From NCBI RefSeq assembly GCF_016432865.1, contig NC_067399.1, positions 39,618,001 through 39,682,000 of the forward strand: a stretch of 64,000 nucleotides of DNA. The letters are read 5' to 3'. A program made the position numbers and the translations under genes. The DNA comes from Antechinus flavipes. Its lineage: Eukaryota. Positions 32,761-47,949 of the stretch are shown here, one piece after another. Under the pieces are notes generated by a model. It did not search any database, was not told the DNA's origin, and worked only from the letters and a program-made list of their open reading frames with translations. Each line of letters starts with the position of its first letter. The stretch's first letter is position 1.

Positions 32761-34979
32761 ATTTGCTTAATACAAATAGTTTGAAGTAGAAATAAATTTA
32801 ACTCAGTTCTTGTTGCTAAGTTTTCAGTTTCTCTGACTCTTCATGAGATAGCAGATATACTGAAGTATTTTGCCTTTTCCCTCTCCAACTTATTTTAGAT
32901 TAGGAAACTGAGGCAGACAGGATCACAACAACAAAATTTATTAAAGATTTTACAAGAAATGTTGGCTCATGGTTACTCCTTTAGGATCAAGTAGAAAAGG
33001 TATGATGGTTCAACCTGAAATATAAATACTCTTAAGTGGTTATTACCTTTTTCAAATGATGCAACCTTTTAAAGTCTAAGAGAACTGGATTAATGAAAGA
33101 ATAAGAAACTAAGAACAACATGGGAATTTCTAATTTGTGAACAAAGACTGCTTTTAACTTAGGAAATATTGGCTTTCAATATCAGTCCATTTTGAATTAC
33201 TTCTTAGTCCTGTCTTAGTCTATTTATCCCAGCTCTAATCCTTCAATAATTCTGTCTCAGCTCCTCTTTACTTTGATCAATAGACATTTATTCAAACAGT
33301 AAGCATTTACTGAGTTTTCAGTGTACCAAGCACTGTGTTTCAGTACTGGGCTCTGTCCTAGGTTTTAGAAGAATAGAAACAAGTTTTAATCTGTATTTAG
33401 TCTCTTACCAAATCTCTTTTTCTTTGAACAGCTCATTCTGCATATCTGGAATGTACTCCTTCCACAGAGATGTGATGTAGAATATCAAGTTCTGGGAACA
33501 GCAACTAGTCCCATGTAGTTGAAATATAGATACATGAAGGGAATCCCCAACTTGAGGACTCTCCCCTTCTTTGGGTCTTTAGAATGTAAGAATATAAGAA
33601 ATACAAGGATATTTCTATCCCTGGTGCTCAGCACAGTCACTTGCACCCAACTTCAACTCCGTCATATGAGAGGTGAGGAAACTGAGACATAGGTAGATTT
33701 AGTGATTTACCTGGGATCTCCCAGCTGGTATCTGAGGCAATATTTAATGTGGGTCTTCCCAGCAAGTTCCCCACTCTATCCACTCAAAAATGAGGAAGGA
33801 AAGGATAGTTTCGGGCAGAGGGACATCTTGTCTGAAGACCTGTTCCTTTGAACATAGCCCTTGCTGGGCCCTGGAGAAGCAATGGAAACACATGAAGAGA
33901 TTGAGTCCAGCATCTCTCTTCTTGCCCTCATATGTGTGGATCCCACAACGACCAGTCCCAACTTCCTTATCCTCTTTATACAGCTTCCCAGTCCACTTTC
34001 AGCCCATTTATCATTTTCTTTTCCAGTCTACCTCATCCACCCCAGTTCCACTCTCTCCAGTGCCCTTATCTTCCTTTTCTTCAGTTTTTAAAGCCTTTCA
34101 CAAACTGGCTCCTTTCAATCTTTCCCATCTTCTTATACTTTACTCCCCTGGGGAACTGTACAATTGACAGCAGCCTTCTTGTTGTTCATTCTCACTAAGC
34201 CTTTTTTTCAGTAGCCTTCCCCTTCCTCTTCTGCCTTCCATCAAAGATTCAGCTCCCACCTCATACAGGCCTTTCCCGGTCTTCCTACTACTAGTACCTC
34301 CGCCCGTCAGGTTACTACCTTCCACTTAACAATATCTGCCATTTAAATAACACTTCAGAGTCTAAAGTACTTTACAAATATTCTCTCAACTTCACAACAG
34401 CAATGGGTGCTATCATCACCTCATTTTTAGAGATGAGAAACTGAAGCATGCAGAAGTGCCGAGGGACCTGTCTAGATCATCCAGCTGATCAAGCGTCCCG
34501 AGGTAGGATTTGAACTCAGGTCTCTCGGATCCCAATTCATTTGCTCCCTACGAGTATCTTCTATACAGGGCTGTTTTCGCGTTGTCTCCCTCACGAGCTC
34601 TCAGAGGGCGGGGACTGTTTTTTGTCTTTCTTCTTGGCATTCCCAGAGCTTGGCACCCCTGGCACACAGCAGGCACCTAATAAGTGACTTTTGAATGACT
34701 GGACTCCCTCTTCTTGGAGCAGAAAGGAAGCAAACAGCCCGTGGCCCTTCCTGGACACTGCCTAGCTACTCATCCTCTGCTAGGATTCGGGGCTGCAAGG
34801 GCTCTCGGAGGATAGCTCATCCTGTCCGGCTCCTCGTTTAGCAGATGAGGAAACTGAGGCTCCGAGAGAAGTGGCTTGTCCAGGTATATGACCAGTCTTT
34901 AAAAGAGAAGAGCATGGCTACCAAGGGAAGGAACAGAAAAGCATTACCCGAGGAGCTCCCTCCTTCAAGGAGATCACTT

Positions 34980-36100
34980 CATGAAAAGGCTTTTCCTCCG
35001 CACCCCTCTAAAAAAAGAACTACAACTCCCACAGTGCTCCGCGCGGCCCGGTGCCGCGCACGCGTGACCAGCCGAACTCCTCCCCTTGCAGAGAGCTGCG
35101 AGGCGGCCGAGCCTAGCTGTGCTGCCTCCTGTGGCCGCCCCCCGGCCCCGGGGCTGAGTCGTGGTTCCGCAGCGGGTCGTAGAATGGCGTTGAAGCGGAT
35201 CCAGAAGGTAAGCCTCCCGCCTTCCCTCGTCCTCAGCGTGAGTCCGGGACGGAGGAGCCGCGGGCGTCGGCTTCACTTCCACACTGGGAGCCGCGGCAGG
35301 AGGCGGCGCCGCGCGCAGGCGCGGGAAAACTTGTGGCACCTGCCAAATAGGGAGGCGGCGCCGCGCGTGGCCGCTGCCTTACAAGGCAATGGTCGGCGCG
35401 GGAGCTGGGGCGGGGCCGCGCGGGGTCAGGGGAGCGTCCGGGGGCGGGGCCTGGGCGCAGCTACGGCGCCCGCTGGCCAACCAGTGCTTCTTAGCGGGTT
35501 CCCCTTCGTCCTGGATCGTCCATGAGCATAGAGGGGGCGTGGCCCATGTTCTAGCACCGCCCCCTGCTCCTATCATTTAAAGACAGGAGCTGTCAACCTC
35601 AGGCTCCGCACCGCGTGGGGCCCACAGCAGATGCTTAATTAATGCTTGTACACTTGCCCCCTTCCCTGATGGTCTACCGGACTAGATCCGGGCTCGAGAG
35701 GACCTCAGGCTCATTCACATATGCATCAGGACGGGAAACTGAGGCTCCCAAGGCCAGCCAGAGCGTGGCGGCTCCTGAGACTCCCCAGCCCGGCCTTCTC
35801 TCCTGCGCGCTACGGTCTTCCTGCACGTGCCGCTGAGAGCTGGAAAGCAAGCATCCGAGAGGGGCATCTGGGCCAGAGCGGGAAACTGAGTCTCAGCCGG
35901 GGGGCAGGCTGGGCCTTCTCCGTCCCAGGAGCCTGCTCGTCCGGGCGCCGATTCCGGACCGGGGCCATTTCTTTGTGATTTGCATTCTGCTTGTCCCCTG
36001 GGCTGCAAGTCTGTAACTCGGCGGGGTCCTGGGTCCCAGACAGTGATCATCTGTGTAGGGATTTCTGTAAGGAAGTGCCTCGGTCCCTGCGGAAAGTCAC
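34980..36100. promoter_or_regulatory. CpG island / UBE2D4 promoter
   Basis: GC- and CpG-rich around exon 1; NRF1-like GCGCACGCG near 35056; YY1-like AATGGCG overlapping the ATG; GC boxes and G4-like runs 35400-35456. Boundaries approximate. Confidence 0.85.
35184..35207 (+). CDS. UBE2D4: UBE2D4 coding exon 1 (MALKRIQK)
   Basis: ATGGCGTTGAAGCGGATCCAGAAG|GTAAGC in a CpG island; canonical UBE2D N-terminus and 24-nt exon. Confidence 0.95.
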
Positions 36101-42057: not shown

Positions 42058-43317
42058 AGATGGTTACTGGTTCTTTAGTGAGACCAGCTTTTCATGTTGA
42101 AACTTACCTGATGATGATTTGGGAGGCTAGATTCATGGATAGTCTTTAAATACTCATAGTGTTTATGATTTTTTTTTCCCAGTGTAGGTACTTCCTCTAT
42201 TTAAGGACACTGTAATTTTTAATATTTGTAATATTTAATATTTAGTTATTGTTATCAAGAGGTTTTGTGGCCAAAAAATAATCTGTCTACAACCATTTTG
42301 GTGATGAACCTTCACATCTTCCTAAATACAGGTCTGACTTTGGTACCTCTCCCCTTCTCAGGAATATGCAGTGGTTCCCTATCACCTCTAGATCAACTAT
42401 AAAATCTTCTGTTTGGAGTTTAAAATTTGATAGACCCTAGCTTTCTTTCACCTTTTTAGTCTGCCTTCTTAGACTTTACTCCCTGAAATGTACATTGATG
42501 TCTTATTGATATGAGTCTTGCCCAAGATAAACTTATCACCTGATTCCAGGCATTTTCTCTGGCTGATTATCCCTCAAGTCTTCTGGAATGCTCTCTGTTC
42601 TCATTTTCTCTTGGCTTTTCCTGGTTTCTTGGAGGTCCCAACTAAAATAATACCTTCTAGGAAGCCTTTCCCAATTCATCTTGTCTGTAGCTTATTTTTA
42701 TTTTATTTATTTGTTTGTTATCTCCCCCATTAGATTGTGAGCTCCTTGAGGGCAGGACCTGACTTCTATTTTTGTATCCCTACTGCTTAGCAAAGTGCCT
42801 GGCATACAGTAGGCACTTAAATGTTTTTTGACTGATTGATTGGAGTAGTTTCCAAAGTCACTCATTGTTCCTAAAATCTTTTAAGTTGGGGAGAATTATT
42901 AAAACTTACATTCCTCTGGAATAATCTTTGATAACTACCATTTACATTCTGAATTGAGGCACTGGAATAGGAACTTTGTTGGAGATTATGATGCTAACGT
43001 TAGAAAGCTATCCTTATATATAGGGTAATGTTCCTCTCTTCCCCTCTAATTTTATGTTAAATCTGATATTTTTGCTACTTAGAGTTTTATTGATGTTTTG
43101 GTTTTACATTATAACATATATAATAATTAATCCCAATTTATGAGGAATCTCTTGTAATAGAAATAATTTAAGGAAAACTAATAACATGGGGACTTCATCT
43201 AAAGGGCATGCCGTGTTTCATATCTGTATTTTTTTTTTAAGTGAACAAACCTATTTTCCTTTCTTCCCTACCCCATGGTGATGGTGGGATGATGCTTGTA
43301 ACAAATATGTACAGTCT

Positions 43318-43480
43318 GGGACAGCTAGATGGTACAGTGGATAGAACACCAGCCCTGAAGTCAGAAGGACCTAAGTTCAAATGTAGCCTCAGACATCTAA
43401 TTAACACTTTTTTGCTCTGTGATTGTGAGCAAGTCTCTTATCCCCAATTGCCTAGCCAAATAAATAAATAAAATGAACTA
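43318..43480 (+). mobile_element. WSINE1-type SINE
   Basis: gggacagctagatggtacagtggatagaacaccagccctgaagtcag..., A-rich tail just left of the ERV. Confidence 0.85.
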
Positions 43481-43506
43481 AAAAGAAAACAAAAATAAAT
43501 AAGCAT

Positions 43507-44484
43507 TGTTGGAATCTTTACAAACTGCTAACTCATTAGAGTTGATAGATTATTGATCTGATCTTACAAGAAGATGTTTTGAGCCAGAACTTGAAACAAG
43601 GTACTAAGTAGAACTAATTGATACAGTGCTTGTGTTTGCACTTTTACTCACTGGAATTCACAAGTATGGGAGATTCACAAAGTTAACTGTGTAACTTTGT
43701 GAGTTCACACCTCCCTTGAAGCTCTTAGGGCCAGAGAGCACTATGGGAGAAAACCCATAATCCCTCTCTCTTGTATCCCACAATTCCTCTTTCTCATATA
43801 AAACAGACAGAGGATCTCGGGGAGAGTGGAGCTGAAGATTGAGAAGGCTGTCTCAGAAGCACAATCAGATTCATCTTCATCTCACACCACTGTGGTGGCT
43901 GGGCTCCTGCACTTCCCCCACTGAGACCAAGCTGGTCTGAAAGACTCGCCAGAAAGCTGCCCAGACCTAGGCAAGGAGACAAGAGATCCATTCCATCTTT
44001 GTGCTGGCTGGAGGCTGAAGAAAGCAGAGGCAGAGGCTGAAGGACAAAACCTTTGGATTTGGCGACATTCGGAGGGAGCTCTTGGAACCAAGCAGAGAGA
44101 TAGGCCTCTAAGCTAACTGGGTTATATTGGAGACAATAAAAGATCTGAACTTTTATCACCTGGCTGCGTTTTGGGTAATTATTTACTTTTAACAGAAACT
44201 AAGGCTGCCTCCAGAAAACCTCCCTGAGAAACTTGCTCTCTCTCCCAGAGAGAACCTTTATATTATTTTAAAGAAGAAAAAGAACACCACATTTTGGTGC
44301 CCAACGTGAGGCCAAAATCTCCCATACTTGTGAATGACAATGAGTAAAGGTGTAAACACAAGCATTGTATCAATTAGTTCTACTTAGTACCTTGTTTCAG
44401 GTTCTGGCCCAAAACATCTCCTTGTAAGATCAGATCAATAATCTATCAACTCTAATGAGTTAGCAGTTTGTAAAGATTCCAACA
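43507..44484 (+). mobile_element. Class II (beta-like) ERV remnant: LTR 43507-44291 + PBS + inverted U3 copy 44316-44484
   Basis: TG...CA LTR with TATAAAA 43797-43803 and AATAAA 44135-44140; PBS follows; TSD AAGCAT at 43501-43506 and 44485-44490. Confidence 0.9.
44295..44312 (+). other. Primer-binding site, tRNA-Lys1,2 (CUU) type
   Basis: TGGTGCCCAACGTGAGGC versus consensus TGGCGCCCAACGTGGGGC (16/18), 3 nt after the LTR terminal CA. Confidence 0.9.
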
Positions 44485-44490
44485 AAGCAT

Positions 44491-45450
44491 AATCAAGCAA
44501 AATAAATTCCCTCAGTAGTTCTTCACATAAATATGTTTCATTCTACATGGAGATATGTTTTTATTATGGATCTTCTGGAATCTACTGGTCATTGCATTGA
44601 TGATGATCCTTATAGCTTTCAAACTTGTTTGTCTTCACATTGTTGTTATTATATAAATCTTTCACCTGGTTCTTCTCATTTCATTCTTCATCAGCTTAAA
44701 AAAGTCCCTCAAATTGTTCATTTTTGTAATATTGATATTATAGTATAAATTGTACAGTTCCTCTTTACTTCCTTCTGCATTAGTTCATCTAAATTTCTCT
44801 AAGTCTTTTTGGAATCAATCTGTTTTTCATTTTTTATAAAATCATGATACTCGATCACAACTTATTTGGCCATCCCTCAATTGTTGCACATTTTCTTAGT
44901 TTCCAGGTTTTTTATTTTTAAACTGCTATATAAAGAGCTTCTATAAATATTTTTGCAGATAAAGGACCCTTTCCTCTCCTACTCACTAGTCAATAACTTT
45001 GTGTGTATAATTCCAATTTGCTTTCCACAATGATTGTATCCATTAAGATCCACCAACATTGCATCAGTGTTTTTCTGTAGCCCTTCCTACATTTATCATT
45101 TTCCTCTTTTGTCATTTTTATCCCTGTTGTGAGTATAAGCTGGAATCTCCAAAGTGCTTTTATTTGCATTTCACTAGCAATGATTTAGAACATTTTTGTC
45201 ATATGGCCATAGATAAGCCTGAGTTTCTTCCCTTGAGAACTATCTATTCATATCCTTAGACCGTATGCCAATTGGGAAATGGCTCTTTTTCTTATAAATT
45301 TGAATCAGTTCCTTACATATCTTGGAAATAAGACTTTTGTCAGAAAAATTTAATGCAAAAAATTTTCTCAGTTAATTGGGTAAGAATAAATTATTAATTT
45401 AGCTTTTTTAGGTTTGTTCATGTAAAAGCTTTTACATAATTAAAATTATC
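44491..45450 (-). mobile_element. Old L1 3' region (host of the ERV insertion; continues at about 43200-43317)
   Basis: aatcaagcaaaataaattccc...ccaattgggaaatggctc...gatgcaaaaattttctca, antisense L1-like. Confidence 0.65.
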
Positions 45451-47949
45451 CATGGAAGGCTTAGATCTCAAACCAAGAATTTCTGCCTTCAGATCTAATA
45501 CTTTTTCTGCTGCAGGATACGTAAAGTCCAAGAGTGAGCAAGATTAACAAAGCTGTGAGGATAAAGACAGGGAATCTGAAGGTGGGATTTTATCTGGGAT
45601 CTGAAGAGAAGCTGGAGACAAAAGATGAAGATGTTATTCCCCTTTAGCAGATGAAGAAACTGAGGTTCAGTGAAGCCATGTGAGGAGAAATGAATGGCTT
45701 GGATAAGAAAGTGATAGAGTCACAGGACTCTCATGGGTTAGAAACACTTGCTGTGGAGAAAACTTGCTAGTCTGGTCCCCAGAGGAGCGGGACATCCTCA
45801 AGTGAAAGGATTTGAGGAAAGTGACAGAAGGATAGGTTTGGATTTTGAAGGACTTTAGGATTCAACTGGCCCAGCTTTTTTATTTTACAGGGAAGCAAAG
45901 TGAGACCCAGAGACATACCTGTCTTAGCCAAGGTAACAAACAGGTGGTAAGTGGCACAGCCAGGATTTGAGTCCAGGTCTTGTGACGCTGAGTCCAGCAC
46001 TCTTTCCACGTTGCATGCTGTCCTCCTCTTCTCCTTCCACCAACTCCTCCTCCCCCCCTTCCCCCATGCTGATGCTGGAATTGATCCTAGCATCTGGTTT
46101 AAACCCTCCTCCCCAAATAGGAAATCCTTTTCCTGAACCCAGCACATTTCAGCTCCATCCTCCTTTGTCCTTAGTCTTTCTGCCTTCAGGAAGACAAGTC
46201 CAGTCTCAGGTTCTCATTTTTCTTTTACATTTTACCCCATAGTGAAAGAGAAAAGAGTGGAGTGGGCCTTCTGCTCGGGTCCTCCTTCTTCAGGGTGCTC
46301 AGGATGCAGCCCATCATCCCCTGTTTGTGAAATGCTGAGTTGTTGCTTTCGTTGTTTAGTCATATCCACCCCTTTATGTCCCCTCTGGGGGTTTTCTTGG
46401 TAGAAGTTCTGGAATGGCTTGCTATTTCTTTCTCTGGCTCATTTGACAGATGAAGAAACTGAGCCAAAGAGTGTCACAGCAACCACAAAATTCTCATTCT
46501 GTGCCATTATTGAGGATGGACTATTCGGTCAGAAAAATAGGATAGTTTACTTCTCTTTGGAGTGAAGTAATCTCATGGAGAGGTAGTAATATCTGCAGTA
46601 AACTAAGGTGGCCGCCATTTAAGCAGAAAACTCTCGACTGTCTTCTGCAAGACCAGTGTGACATGACCCTTTAGTTGTTACCTGGGGGAGGAGGGCCGTG
46701 ATAATTCAGATTCAGTGACTATTCCTGACATACTCAGGGCTTCCCGGATAATAAATGGTCAAGCTGTTTGTAACGTTTATATTAGGATTTTGTACTTAGG
46801 TTCCGATTTGATTTATGGAGATAATAAATGCAGTGGGATTTATGACATTGAGAACCAATATCACAGATAAACACAAGTGAGTTCTCTTTTTGGTGGCTTG
46901 TCTGGGGCTTTGTTACCCACACCTCCCCTGCCTGGGTCTTATACAGCCGACCAGCTTGGGGCCTGGAGCAGAATTAGTATGTCTGTGCTTGGGCTTAGTG
47001 TGAGTTTGACCTGTGGTAGGTATCTGGATTCAGAATTGAATTATTTTCCTTCCATATTCAAAGAGAGTAGGAATCCTCTGCTGTACCAGGATGGGTTGAC
47101 CCAGAATGGTAGGGAACTTAAAGGTCACTCCTGAAATATTGAAATCCTTGTGTTCCACTGAGTAGATTTATGTCAAGCAAAAAGGACCGGGTGTAGAGGA
47201 CTCAAGTCATCTTACAGATGAGGCAATGTGAGCCAAGCAAGGTGAGATTGCTGGCCCTTGGCCACACAGCTACCAAGAGAACCCAGATCTTCTGAAATCT
47301 CCTCAGGGCTCTGTCTCTCCCCCCTACTTCCCCAGGCCCCTTCTCCATTTCATTAGTGCATCTGTTTGGGAGCCAACACTGTGTGTTCTCTTTTTAATCC
47401 TTTGTGTAGAGATGGATGTCAAGTTACCAGAAAAGTGGTGTTGGTGAAGACAGGGGGGCAGGGAAGGATGCCTGAAAAATAACCGGGTCTTGAGCCAGGT
47501 GCTTAAGTAGACCAAAAAGTGTCATGGCAGGGGTGAGCAATGACATTGGCCAAGTTGAATTTTAAGAGTCTACTCATCCTTGGGCTGGAATTGTCACATC
47601 CCTTTGATTTAGGATGGATGCTTTCCCAAAGAGATGAGCAGCCACCATTGTAGTATAGAGAGCAGGGTTACATCACCCCCCTCAGGATATCTGAATGCTC
47701 TCAGGAATAGCCCCTAGGAGGCCATGGGGAGGACAGGTTAAGAATAATCAAAAACTGGGGCCATCTTTCAAGCCTCCCTGAAAGGCCTCCCTTTGGGGAT
47801 AGGACATGGCCCTGGGCCATTCCTGAGCTAATCTTTGAGCTCTTGCTCCAAGCGTTCTGGCCACACACCAGTCCACTGTCTGATATTTTCTTTGCTGATA
47901 TCTTTCTTTGCTTGATATTCTTCTTTTGCTCTTCTTGAGCATATCAGTA

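Follow-up and report, generated by a model that had tools for sequence, protein, structure and literature searches.

How does a retroviral insert come to carry U3 at both of its tips, between the two copies of a perfect target-site duplication (TSD)? The question is raised by positions 43501-44490 of the window, by which we mean the whole 64,000-nucleotide stretch of Antechinus flavipes DNA analysed here, where a 978-base insert, a dead ERV copy, has U3 at either end and a perfect 6-bp TSD around it. A preliminary description had proposed an accident of reverse transcription, in which plus-strand strong-stop DNA skipped its normal second transfer, jumped from the PBS onto a plus-strand U3 and was then inserted by integrase through two U3 ends.

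Architecture of the insert

The left AAGCAT of the TSD (43501-43506, direct reading) is followed on the plus strand by a complete 785-bp LTR of an apparently class II, betaretrovirus-like ERV family (43507-44291), which has TG...CA ends, TATAAA at 43797 and AATAAA at 44135, and which departs from the column-commonest letter of the family alignment at 21 of 745 well-defined columns. Its U3 contains an 11-bp hairpin (43675-43702, plus strand; stem 43675-43685 paired with 43692-43702), and the fold of 43660-43715 has a z-score of -3.74, with equally good folds in 0 of 200 shuffles. A TTT spacer from U5 to the PBS (44292-44294, plus strand), identical to that in 3159 genome matches of the U5-PBS pattern, leads into an 18-nt tRNA-Lys(CTT) PBS (44295-44312, plus strand) of the Lys1,2 type, a near-palindrome. 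This PBS had been called exact; measured against the genome's own tRNA-Lys(CTT), as defined by ARAGORN on locus L072 and by the CCA-less gene copies, it matches at 16 of 18 bases, with a C>T change at a CpG in position 4 and a G>A change in position 15. The left part of the insert is hence U3-R-U5-TTT plus exactly 18 nt of PBS, i.e. the length of strong-stop DNA, and the family leader is absent after it.

Beyond the PBS lies a short turn-back segment on the minus strand (44311-44318), corresponding to the inverted U5/TTT/PBS border, whose final three bases, AAT, overlap the first bases of an inverted copy of U3 1-169 (44316-44484, minus strand). This second U3 end matches LTR positions 1-169 with 9 mismatches, 7 of them transitions, and 0 gaps (blastn E 2.7e-72), ends in CA at 44484 and abuts the right AAGCAT (44485-44490), which is seen by direct reading as well as in contigs of other runs. 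Re-reading thereby bears out the boundaries, LTR signals, arm mismatches and paired AAGCAT given in the preliminary description. Within the window, a random pair of 6-mers at the spacing of the TSD agrees fully with a frequency of 0.00043.

The right end of the insert is accordingly inverted U3 rather than U5, unlike a canonical provirus. A solo LTR of a class II ERV would share the LTR family and the 6-bp TSD, but ends in U5 and lacks a PBS, whereas this insert keeps its PBS and ends in U3. Neither a PPT nor a second direct LTR, coding sequence or second U5 is present in 43501-44490, and since PPT, coding sequence and second U5 are all missing, the element cannot copy itself. No mature-tRNA sequence follows the PBS at this locus, ARAGORN found no tRNA over the window, Rfam gave nothing over 42500-45500, and no tandem repeats run across the element. 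As to its surroundings, a SINE-like repeat of very high copy number with an A-rich tail occupies 43320-43500 and stops right at the left TSD, so that the insertion point coincides with the end of that tail; farther away, 34001-36000 has a GC content of 57% against about 38% nearby and is possibly a CpG island.

The LTR family and its ordinary copies

A genome search with the LTR returned 7525 candidates, 40 of which were scored, and full-length matches among these are 87-94% identical. Canonical copies had been expected to end in U5, and most of the scored copies indeed read as solo LTRs with a U5 end and 6-bp duplications (e.g. L004, L005, L020, L023, L024 and L030), as judged by reading rather than by a formal count. 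The pairing of a Lys primer with a 6-bp TSD had been taken as a sign of class II, in agreement with the relative L036, whose leader runs into Gag_p10 and Gag_p24 (PF02337, E 1.7e-10; PF00607, E 7.7e-26; PF19317, E 5e-20). Gag type, Lys PBS and TSD length together point to a class II, betaretrovirus-like family.

Two arrangements first listed as inverted structures proved to be something else. The locus at C2:558369124 (L031) consists of two direct LTR variants, and the pair at G000:C2:209.66 Mb (L030/L032), also considered as a provirus, is a duplicated solo LTR, where a 6.2-kb duplication repeats the solo LTR together with an adjacent inverted LTR variant.

Reality and age of the insertion

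Contigs from four public runs of related organisms were compared over 43000-45000; the depth, joint and loose-end tables of these runs were left out, being swamped by family copies. Runs X15, X16 and X1 (organisms D, E and A) each yield a contig that starts at 44460 and continues into the flank on the right, so that 25 nt of inverted U3 adjoin unique flank in each, an overlap that falls under the applied 31-letter bridging rule; across about 540 nt, the three contigs show 0, 2 and 11 differences, respectively. In run X2 (organism B), contig 25 (1071 nt) joins 43370-43456 to 44485-45000 with 44 letters in between, the length of 43457-43500. Organism B hence appears, from contig coordinates, to hold the empty site with one AAGCAT that the preliminary description had suggested looking for.

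The arms themselves carry a record of age. Compared with 35 other copies over U3 1-169, the left arm has 6 private departures from the column-commonest letter and the right arm 3, with none shared, while the median for the other copies is 4. Arm-to-arm divergence is 5.3% (Poisson range 2.4-10.1%), and the flanks diverge by 2.0% from organism A (18/888), which carries the inverted end, and by 5.1% from organism B (31/603), which is without the insert; the arms are thus close to the greatest age possible for the insertion. An origin of the inverted arm by later duplication is correspondingly disfavoured, though with zero shared changes it retains a probability of 0.22 if its date is uniform over the element's age. 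The insert also displays the marks of concerted insertion, namely two intact TG...CA ends, a TSD of family length and a one-copy empty site as deduced from contig coordinates.

An assembly artefact, in the form of a fold-back chimera, could be entertained because the central PBS junction is spanned by no contig among those listed. Arm divergence had already been cited against it, and rightly so: the 9 arm differences are private to one arm or the other, and together with the inverted end at the right flank in three other runs they argue that the structure is not an artefact, which we consider extremely unlikely.

The central junction

The three bases CAA between PBS and inverted U3 had been treated as a neutral spacer. 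They turn out to belong to CAAAAT (44313-44318), the reverse complement of the element's own 44291-44296, a 6-mer that occurs once in the inverted LTR plus PBS, at the U5/PBS border, against a background of 0.0007 per position. Four genome matches share the PBS+CAAAAT register and all were read; the other three (L212, L213 and L214) continue into inverted U5. L213 comprises a whole inverted LTR with the TSD AGAAAC twice, and L212 resumes, after 17 nt, at U3 180, inside the same U3 hairpin; the far end of L214 was not found. On our best reading of these sequences, the strand would have reversed at the PBS first and reached U3 169 only afterwards. Only CAA lies outside both PBS and U3 arm at the present locus, such that the turn-back rests on 6 nt together with precedent, and its register is without the GC of the commonest junction (4 loci versus 68).

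We also considered CAA as the start of the family leader, which reads TGA-CAAAATC in L092 and L104. This was rejected, as it would require the loss of exactly TGA, as PBS+CAAAATC is found in no other Lys1,2 copy and as the same register elsewhere leads into inverted U5. A leader slip in L169 is of a different kind.

The inverted arm ends at U3 169, which is the first base pair of the 11-bp hairpin, and the junctions of L212 (LTR 180) and L002 (LTR 186) fall in the same hairpin, a coincidence spotted post hoc and offered as a lead only. The fold of the present junction itself (44285-44320) is unremarkable (z -0.70).

The literal proposal of the preliminary description, that the strong-stop 3' end with three untemplated bases made one jump onto U3 near 169 of its own or another plus strand, has several observations in its favour. 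The class does include direct PBS-to-inverted-LTR joins (L090, L093 and, with microhomology at LTR ~464, L002), the landing point is the hairpin foot where a nascent plus strand would stall, and the first three nucleotides after the PBS vary among copies. It leaves to chance, however, that the six nucleotides after the PBS equal the one turn-back 6-mer, and that 3 of 3 other loci of the same register continue into inverted U5, and we regard it as improbable. What stands of the earlier idea is priming on the plus strand and insertion through two U3 ends; the direct PBS-to-U3 step gives way to the turn-back register, with its three further loci.

The inner junction likewise bears on autointegration, or on insertion of a second, antisense LTR into the PBS region followed by deletion. 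Inversion circles formed by autointegration are described in PMC7197481 and share an inverted segment with our insert, and L014 and L044, which belong to the class described below, have an LTR-terminal CA at the inner junction. The circles, however, join at a processed LTR end, whereas the insert here is integrated and its inner junction runs PBS / CAAAAT / U3 169, with no processed LTR end. A second LTR insertion should have brought its own TSD, and its U3 tip could not abut the AAGCAT of the first element exactly. One-ended, 'aberrant' ASLV and HIV-1 integrations also produce joins of viral to viral DNA in either orientation, according to PMC5041404. In these, one end is inserted into host DNA, often truncated, and large duplications or deletions accompany it; second ends are ragged, and ends repaired by the host are usually truncated or bear large duplications. 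Our insert has intact TG...CA at either tip and a 6-bp TSD. We judge these routes very unlikely.

A class of two-U3 insertions across the genome

The mis-transfer is not a one-off event. We find at least 18 distinct loci, in two LTR families, where U3 forms both ends and the TSD matches at 6/6: the present locus (L088) and L014, L044, L082, L089, L078, L080, L122, L126, L135, L153, L184, L194, L196, L200, L203, L208 and L213. The number comes from targeted searches and is a floor, not a rate. Six of the 17 others have mature-tRNA sequence after the PBS. With the apparent empty site and the lack of any derived change shared between the arms, these 17 loci, six of them with tRNA, support the core of the earlier idea. 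Loci with an inverted arm left out of the 18 are L002, L085, L093, L212, L214 and L134, where a matching far end is lost or was not found, and L079 and L091, with TSD matches of 3/6 and 2/6. Among 16 tabulated members of the class, the TSD matches at 6/6 in 10, at 5/6 in 2, at 4/6 in 3 and at 2/6 in 1.

A closed set was defined by the subfamily pattern U5-TTT-PBS(Lys1,2), with 24 matches at 23 distinct loci, the present one included by construction. The normal TGA leader follows in 12 of the 23, and 7 run into inverted family sequence (L082, L085, L088, L089, L090, L091 and L093; L089 does both), 3 of the set having two U3 ends and a 6/6 TSD. In the corresponding Lys3 set, inverted U3 is seen in 1 of 19, namely L162, whose left end was not found. 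Because a normal provirus loses its PBS on collapsing to a solo LTR, shares among PBS-bearing loci overstate the true error rate.

The PBS followed by a continuation of the tRNA gave 62 matches, of which 51 hits in 50 loci were read. Twelve hits without CCA read as tRNA genes, and 39 have CCA after an LTR-like end, which argues for an origin of the class in reverse transcription. Two U3 ends and a 6/6 TSD are present in 6 of these 39 read-through hits (L078, L080, L122, L126, L135 and L153), again in two LTR families.

From the 68 PBS turn-back junctions we fetched 30, representing 29 elements, two of them seen before. Both U3 ends lie within 1.5 kb in 11 (6 with a 6/6 TSD, 1 with a 5-bp repeat, 2 with 5/6 and 2 running into the PPT), and one or both were not found within that distance in 19. 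A TSD-guided scan of 15 of those 19 gave 6/6 only in L198 and L201, at the inverted U5 tip, and 5/6 hits that look like chance. In L182/183, L198 and L201, the turn-back junction is internal to an element whose outer ends are ordinary U3...U5 and whose TSD is perfect.

These numbers weigh on two further explanations. A post-integration host rearrangement would have swapped, by template switching, the interior and 3' LTR of a provirus for an inverted 5' U3 while keeping the TSD. The U3 and U5 tips have ACA in common and the TSD is in part self-complementary (with it, the inverted match reaches 176 nt), offering microhomology for the return switch, and an early event would be compatible with zero shared changes. 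The return would nevertheless have to hit the TSD exactly at each of 18 loci from two families, the arms are already as divergent as the empty-site bound permits, and the tRNA read-through members, the unlike arms and the contrast between Lys1,2 and Lys3 would be left unexplained, all of which makes this route quite unlikely. A self-copying miniature element with inverted U3 ends would account for one central junction common to 68 loci, and the preliminary description had reserved this option for a structure found in many copies. It does not apply here: PBS+CAAAATC has a single genome match in the Lys1,2-type pattern search, the present locus, so that the junction is not a copied one, and elsewhere the arms, the junctions or the LTR family are different. 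The insert, moreover, has no PPT, and arms vary in variant and length between loci (30 of the 68 examined), so we hold a miniature element to be highly improbable.

Self-complementarity of the PBS and the number of templates

An intact Lys1,2 PBS is predicted to form a self-duplex of 12 bp (-15.0 kcal/mol) with both 3' ends paired, whereas the predicted Lys3 duplex has 6 bp near the 5' end only (-10.6 kcal/mol). Extension of the Lys1,2 duplex yields the PBS followed by GCCAAAAT, i.e. the 68-fold junction. The corresponding pattern, PBS(Lys1,2)+RCCAAAATGT, has 68 genome matches and its control 0, with 1366 Lys1,2 U5-PBS sites available, versus 2 matches for a looser Lys3 turn-back pattern, a contrast that is approximate, the two patterns not being strictly nested. 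Lys3 sites are the majority among the first 100 listed of the 3159 U5-PBS matches.

Comparison of the arms indicates how many molecules took part. When the terminal 45 nt of U5 are compared between arms, 0 of 30 turn-back junctions reach 40 matching positions and 25 stay below 33, while the U5 ends of two-LTR controls match at 44-45 of 45 positions in 5 of 5. The arms of L203 show just 4 differences in 395 aligned bases, but a 53-nt U5 extension known from ordinary elements is present in one of the two, and in L126 a Lys1,2 PBS with tRNA read-through is joined to an inverted Lys3 PBS. The unlike U5 ends in all 30 junctions, together with L203 and L126, point to two different templates. At the present locus, where U3 1-169 holds no variant-distinguishing sites, a two-molecule origin is putative. 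Long palindromes are unstable, and the absence of same-variant arm pairs, which would be near-perfect palindromes, fits either rapid trimming in the germ line or a failure to assemble; the present locus fits a same-variant pair that was trimmed or short-circuited.

On this basis, the Lys1,2 PBS may be a built-in trap, where strong-stop DNAs of co-packaged genomes pair and yield integration-competent two-U3 palindromes. This would have happened dozens of times in this germ line and left a record of distinct ERV variants being packaged together, and the same would be expected, so far overlooked, wherever a retrovirus or retrotransposon is primed by Lys1,2; we judge the chances of this reading as a whole to be evenly balanced.

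Proposed mechanism

We propose that the insert arose by a turn-back at the PBS, that the remainder of the inverted arm was lost and that the two-U3 product was inserted, a reading to which we assign a probability of roughly 0.7. The part that it has in common with a single jump, i.e. that strong-stop DNA was primed on a plus strand and that a two-U3 substrate was integrated, is very probable.

Plus-strand strong-stop DNA would skip the normal second transfer and, its Lys1,2 PBS being self-complementary, would use this site to pair with another plus strand. The most economical partner would be a second strong-stop DNA from a co-packaged genome, because mutual extension gives a linear duplex with two blunt U3 ends, whereas a lone hairpin gives only one. 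Synthesis then presumably reverses at the PBS and copies the U5/PBS border backwards, the copied border itself being present in the sequence. After 6 nt, the inverted arm would resume at U3 169 via a 3-nt microhomology at the foot of the U3 hairpin, for which two options have about even odds. Either reverse transcription included a second jump, whose target was a plus strand that had stalled at the hairpin, or the newly inserted DNA was an unstable, near-perfect palindrome that was soon shortened by deletion in the germ line, in which case a longer inverted arm, starting CAAAATGT, would have preceded the present one. Finally, integrase would process both U3 ends and insert both in one concerted step. 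The anatomy, the TSD, the turn-back register, its recurrence, the primer contrast and the unlike arms elsewhere in the class are read from the sequences themselves; that two plus strands paired within a particle, when the second break occurred and that integrase inserted both ends in concert we infer from the product.

Relation to known systems

Strand-transfer errors in retroviral vectors were the subject of work by Pulsinelli and Temin in 1991, reportedly on deletions arising in one replication round; the likeness to the present case would lie in transfer errors within a single round. Our literature search, which did not cover 1980s-90s virology and most subscription journals, returned no published report of a class of two-U3 or inverted-LTR integrants, and in the text of PMC11334065, on dasyurid ERVs, the terms 'invert', 'PBS' and 'tRNA' do not occur.

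The nearest counterpart is delayed or aberrant second-strand transfer in HIV-1 (Hardy et al. 2025, PMC12657518), where strong-stop DNA misses the PBS transfer and primes elsewhere, sometimes after reading 7-54 nt into the primer tRNA. The data given there are single-deletion amplicons, without viral ends or integration sites, and concern landing on the minus strand with internal deletions, whereas the present case involves landing on the plus strand, inversion, two U3 ends, a TSD and the germ line. A 2021 study of m1A58 and plus-strand strong stop (PMC8599865) reports that this modification defines the 18-nt PBS end and that read-through products are unable to integrate. The 18-nt PBS end is preserved at our locus in agreement with that work, in contrast to six loci that combine read-through with two U3 ends and a 6/6 TSD. 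The class is in-genome evidence that strong-stop DNAs that miss the second transfer, even after reading the tRNA, can still insert cleanly, contrary to what PMC8599865 states.

We regard the insert as a variant of known second-transfer errors, with a primer-specific, testable cause. It is the class rather than a single dead locus that matters, as it provides in-genome evidence that retroviral integrase takes two U3 ends in vivo. The contrast between Lys1,2 and Lys3 links the choice of primer to a route of error and lends itself to direct testing, and the unlike arms are a fossil record that tells which ERV RNAs were together in one particle, and that both genomes made plus strands there. The inserts are also long inverted repeats, a possible source of rearrangement, and software built to find solo LTRs or pairs of direct LTRs would annotate them wrongly.

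Related structures

Several neighbouring oddities came to light. In L072 (G000:C1:163.21 Mb), L122, L139 and L155, a full mature tRNA-Lys(CTT) including CCA is reverse-copied directly after the LTR, and in L072 and L155 this copy sits inside a two-LTR element whose LTRs are 99.8-100% identical. LTR variants enlarged by PBS, 20-70 nt and a new CA end were seen in L042, L052, L054, L061/L063, L066/L067, L010, L035 and L049, some with the embedded PBS in both LTRs, and L057-L059 have three PBSs 53 nt apart; the LTRs seem to lengthen through second-transfer errors. L153 (G000:C5:159.22 Mb) shows two successive read-throughs, of Lys1,2 and then Lys3 tRNA, followed by inverted U3, and is very young given its 100% identical arms and perfect TSD.

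The inverted arm extends past U3 into the PPT in L079, L093, L186, L209 and L212, and in L079 and L212 it goes on through the inverted interior to an inverted 5' LTR, amounting to strong-stop DNA plus a whole inverted provirus. A second LTR family (start TGTAATGG) has the same architecture in L078, L080, L135 and L073, where the inverted arms have in common a stretch that is missing from the direct LTR, with a SINE-like piece in L078, L080 and L135. A third family (start TGCCAGAG) is represented by L158 (G000:C6:250.65 Mb), with tRNA read-through, a 460-bp inverted arm at 99.6% and a TSD of 4/6. In L099 (G000:C4:191.79 Mb), U5-PBS-CAACA leads straight into a U3 start without a change of orientation, resembling a circle junction. 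Insertions of 0.6-3 kb interrupt the inverted arm in L082/L109, L085 and L091, and the reading frames of the insertion in L109 presumably represent L1 ORF1 and the start of ORF2, which they resemble by eye.
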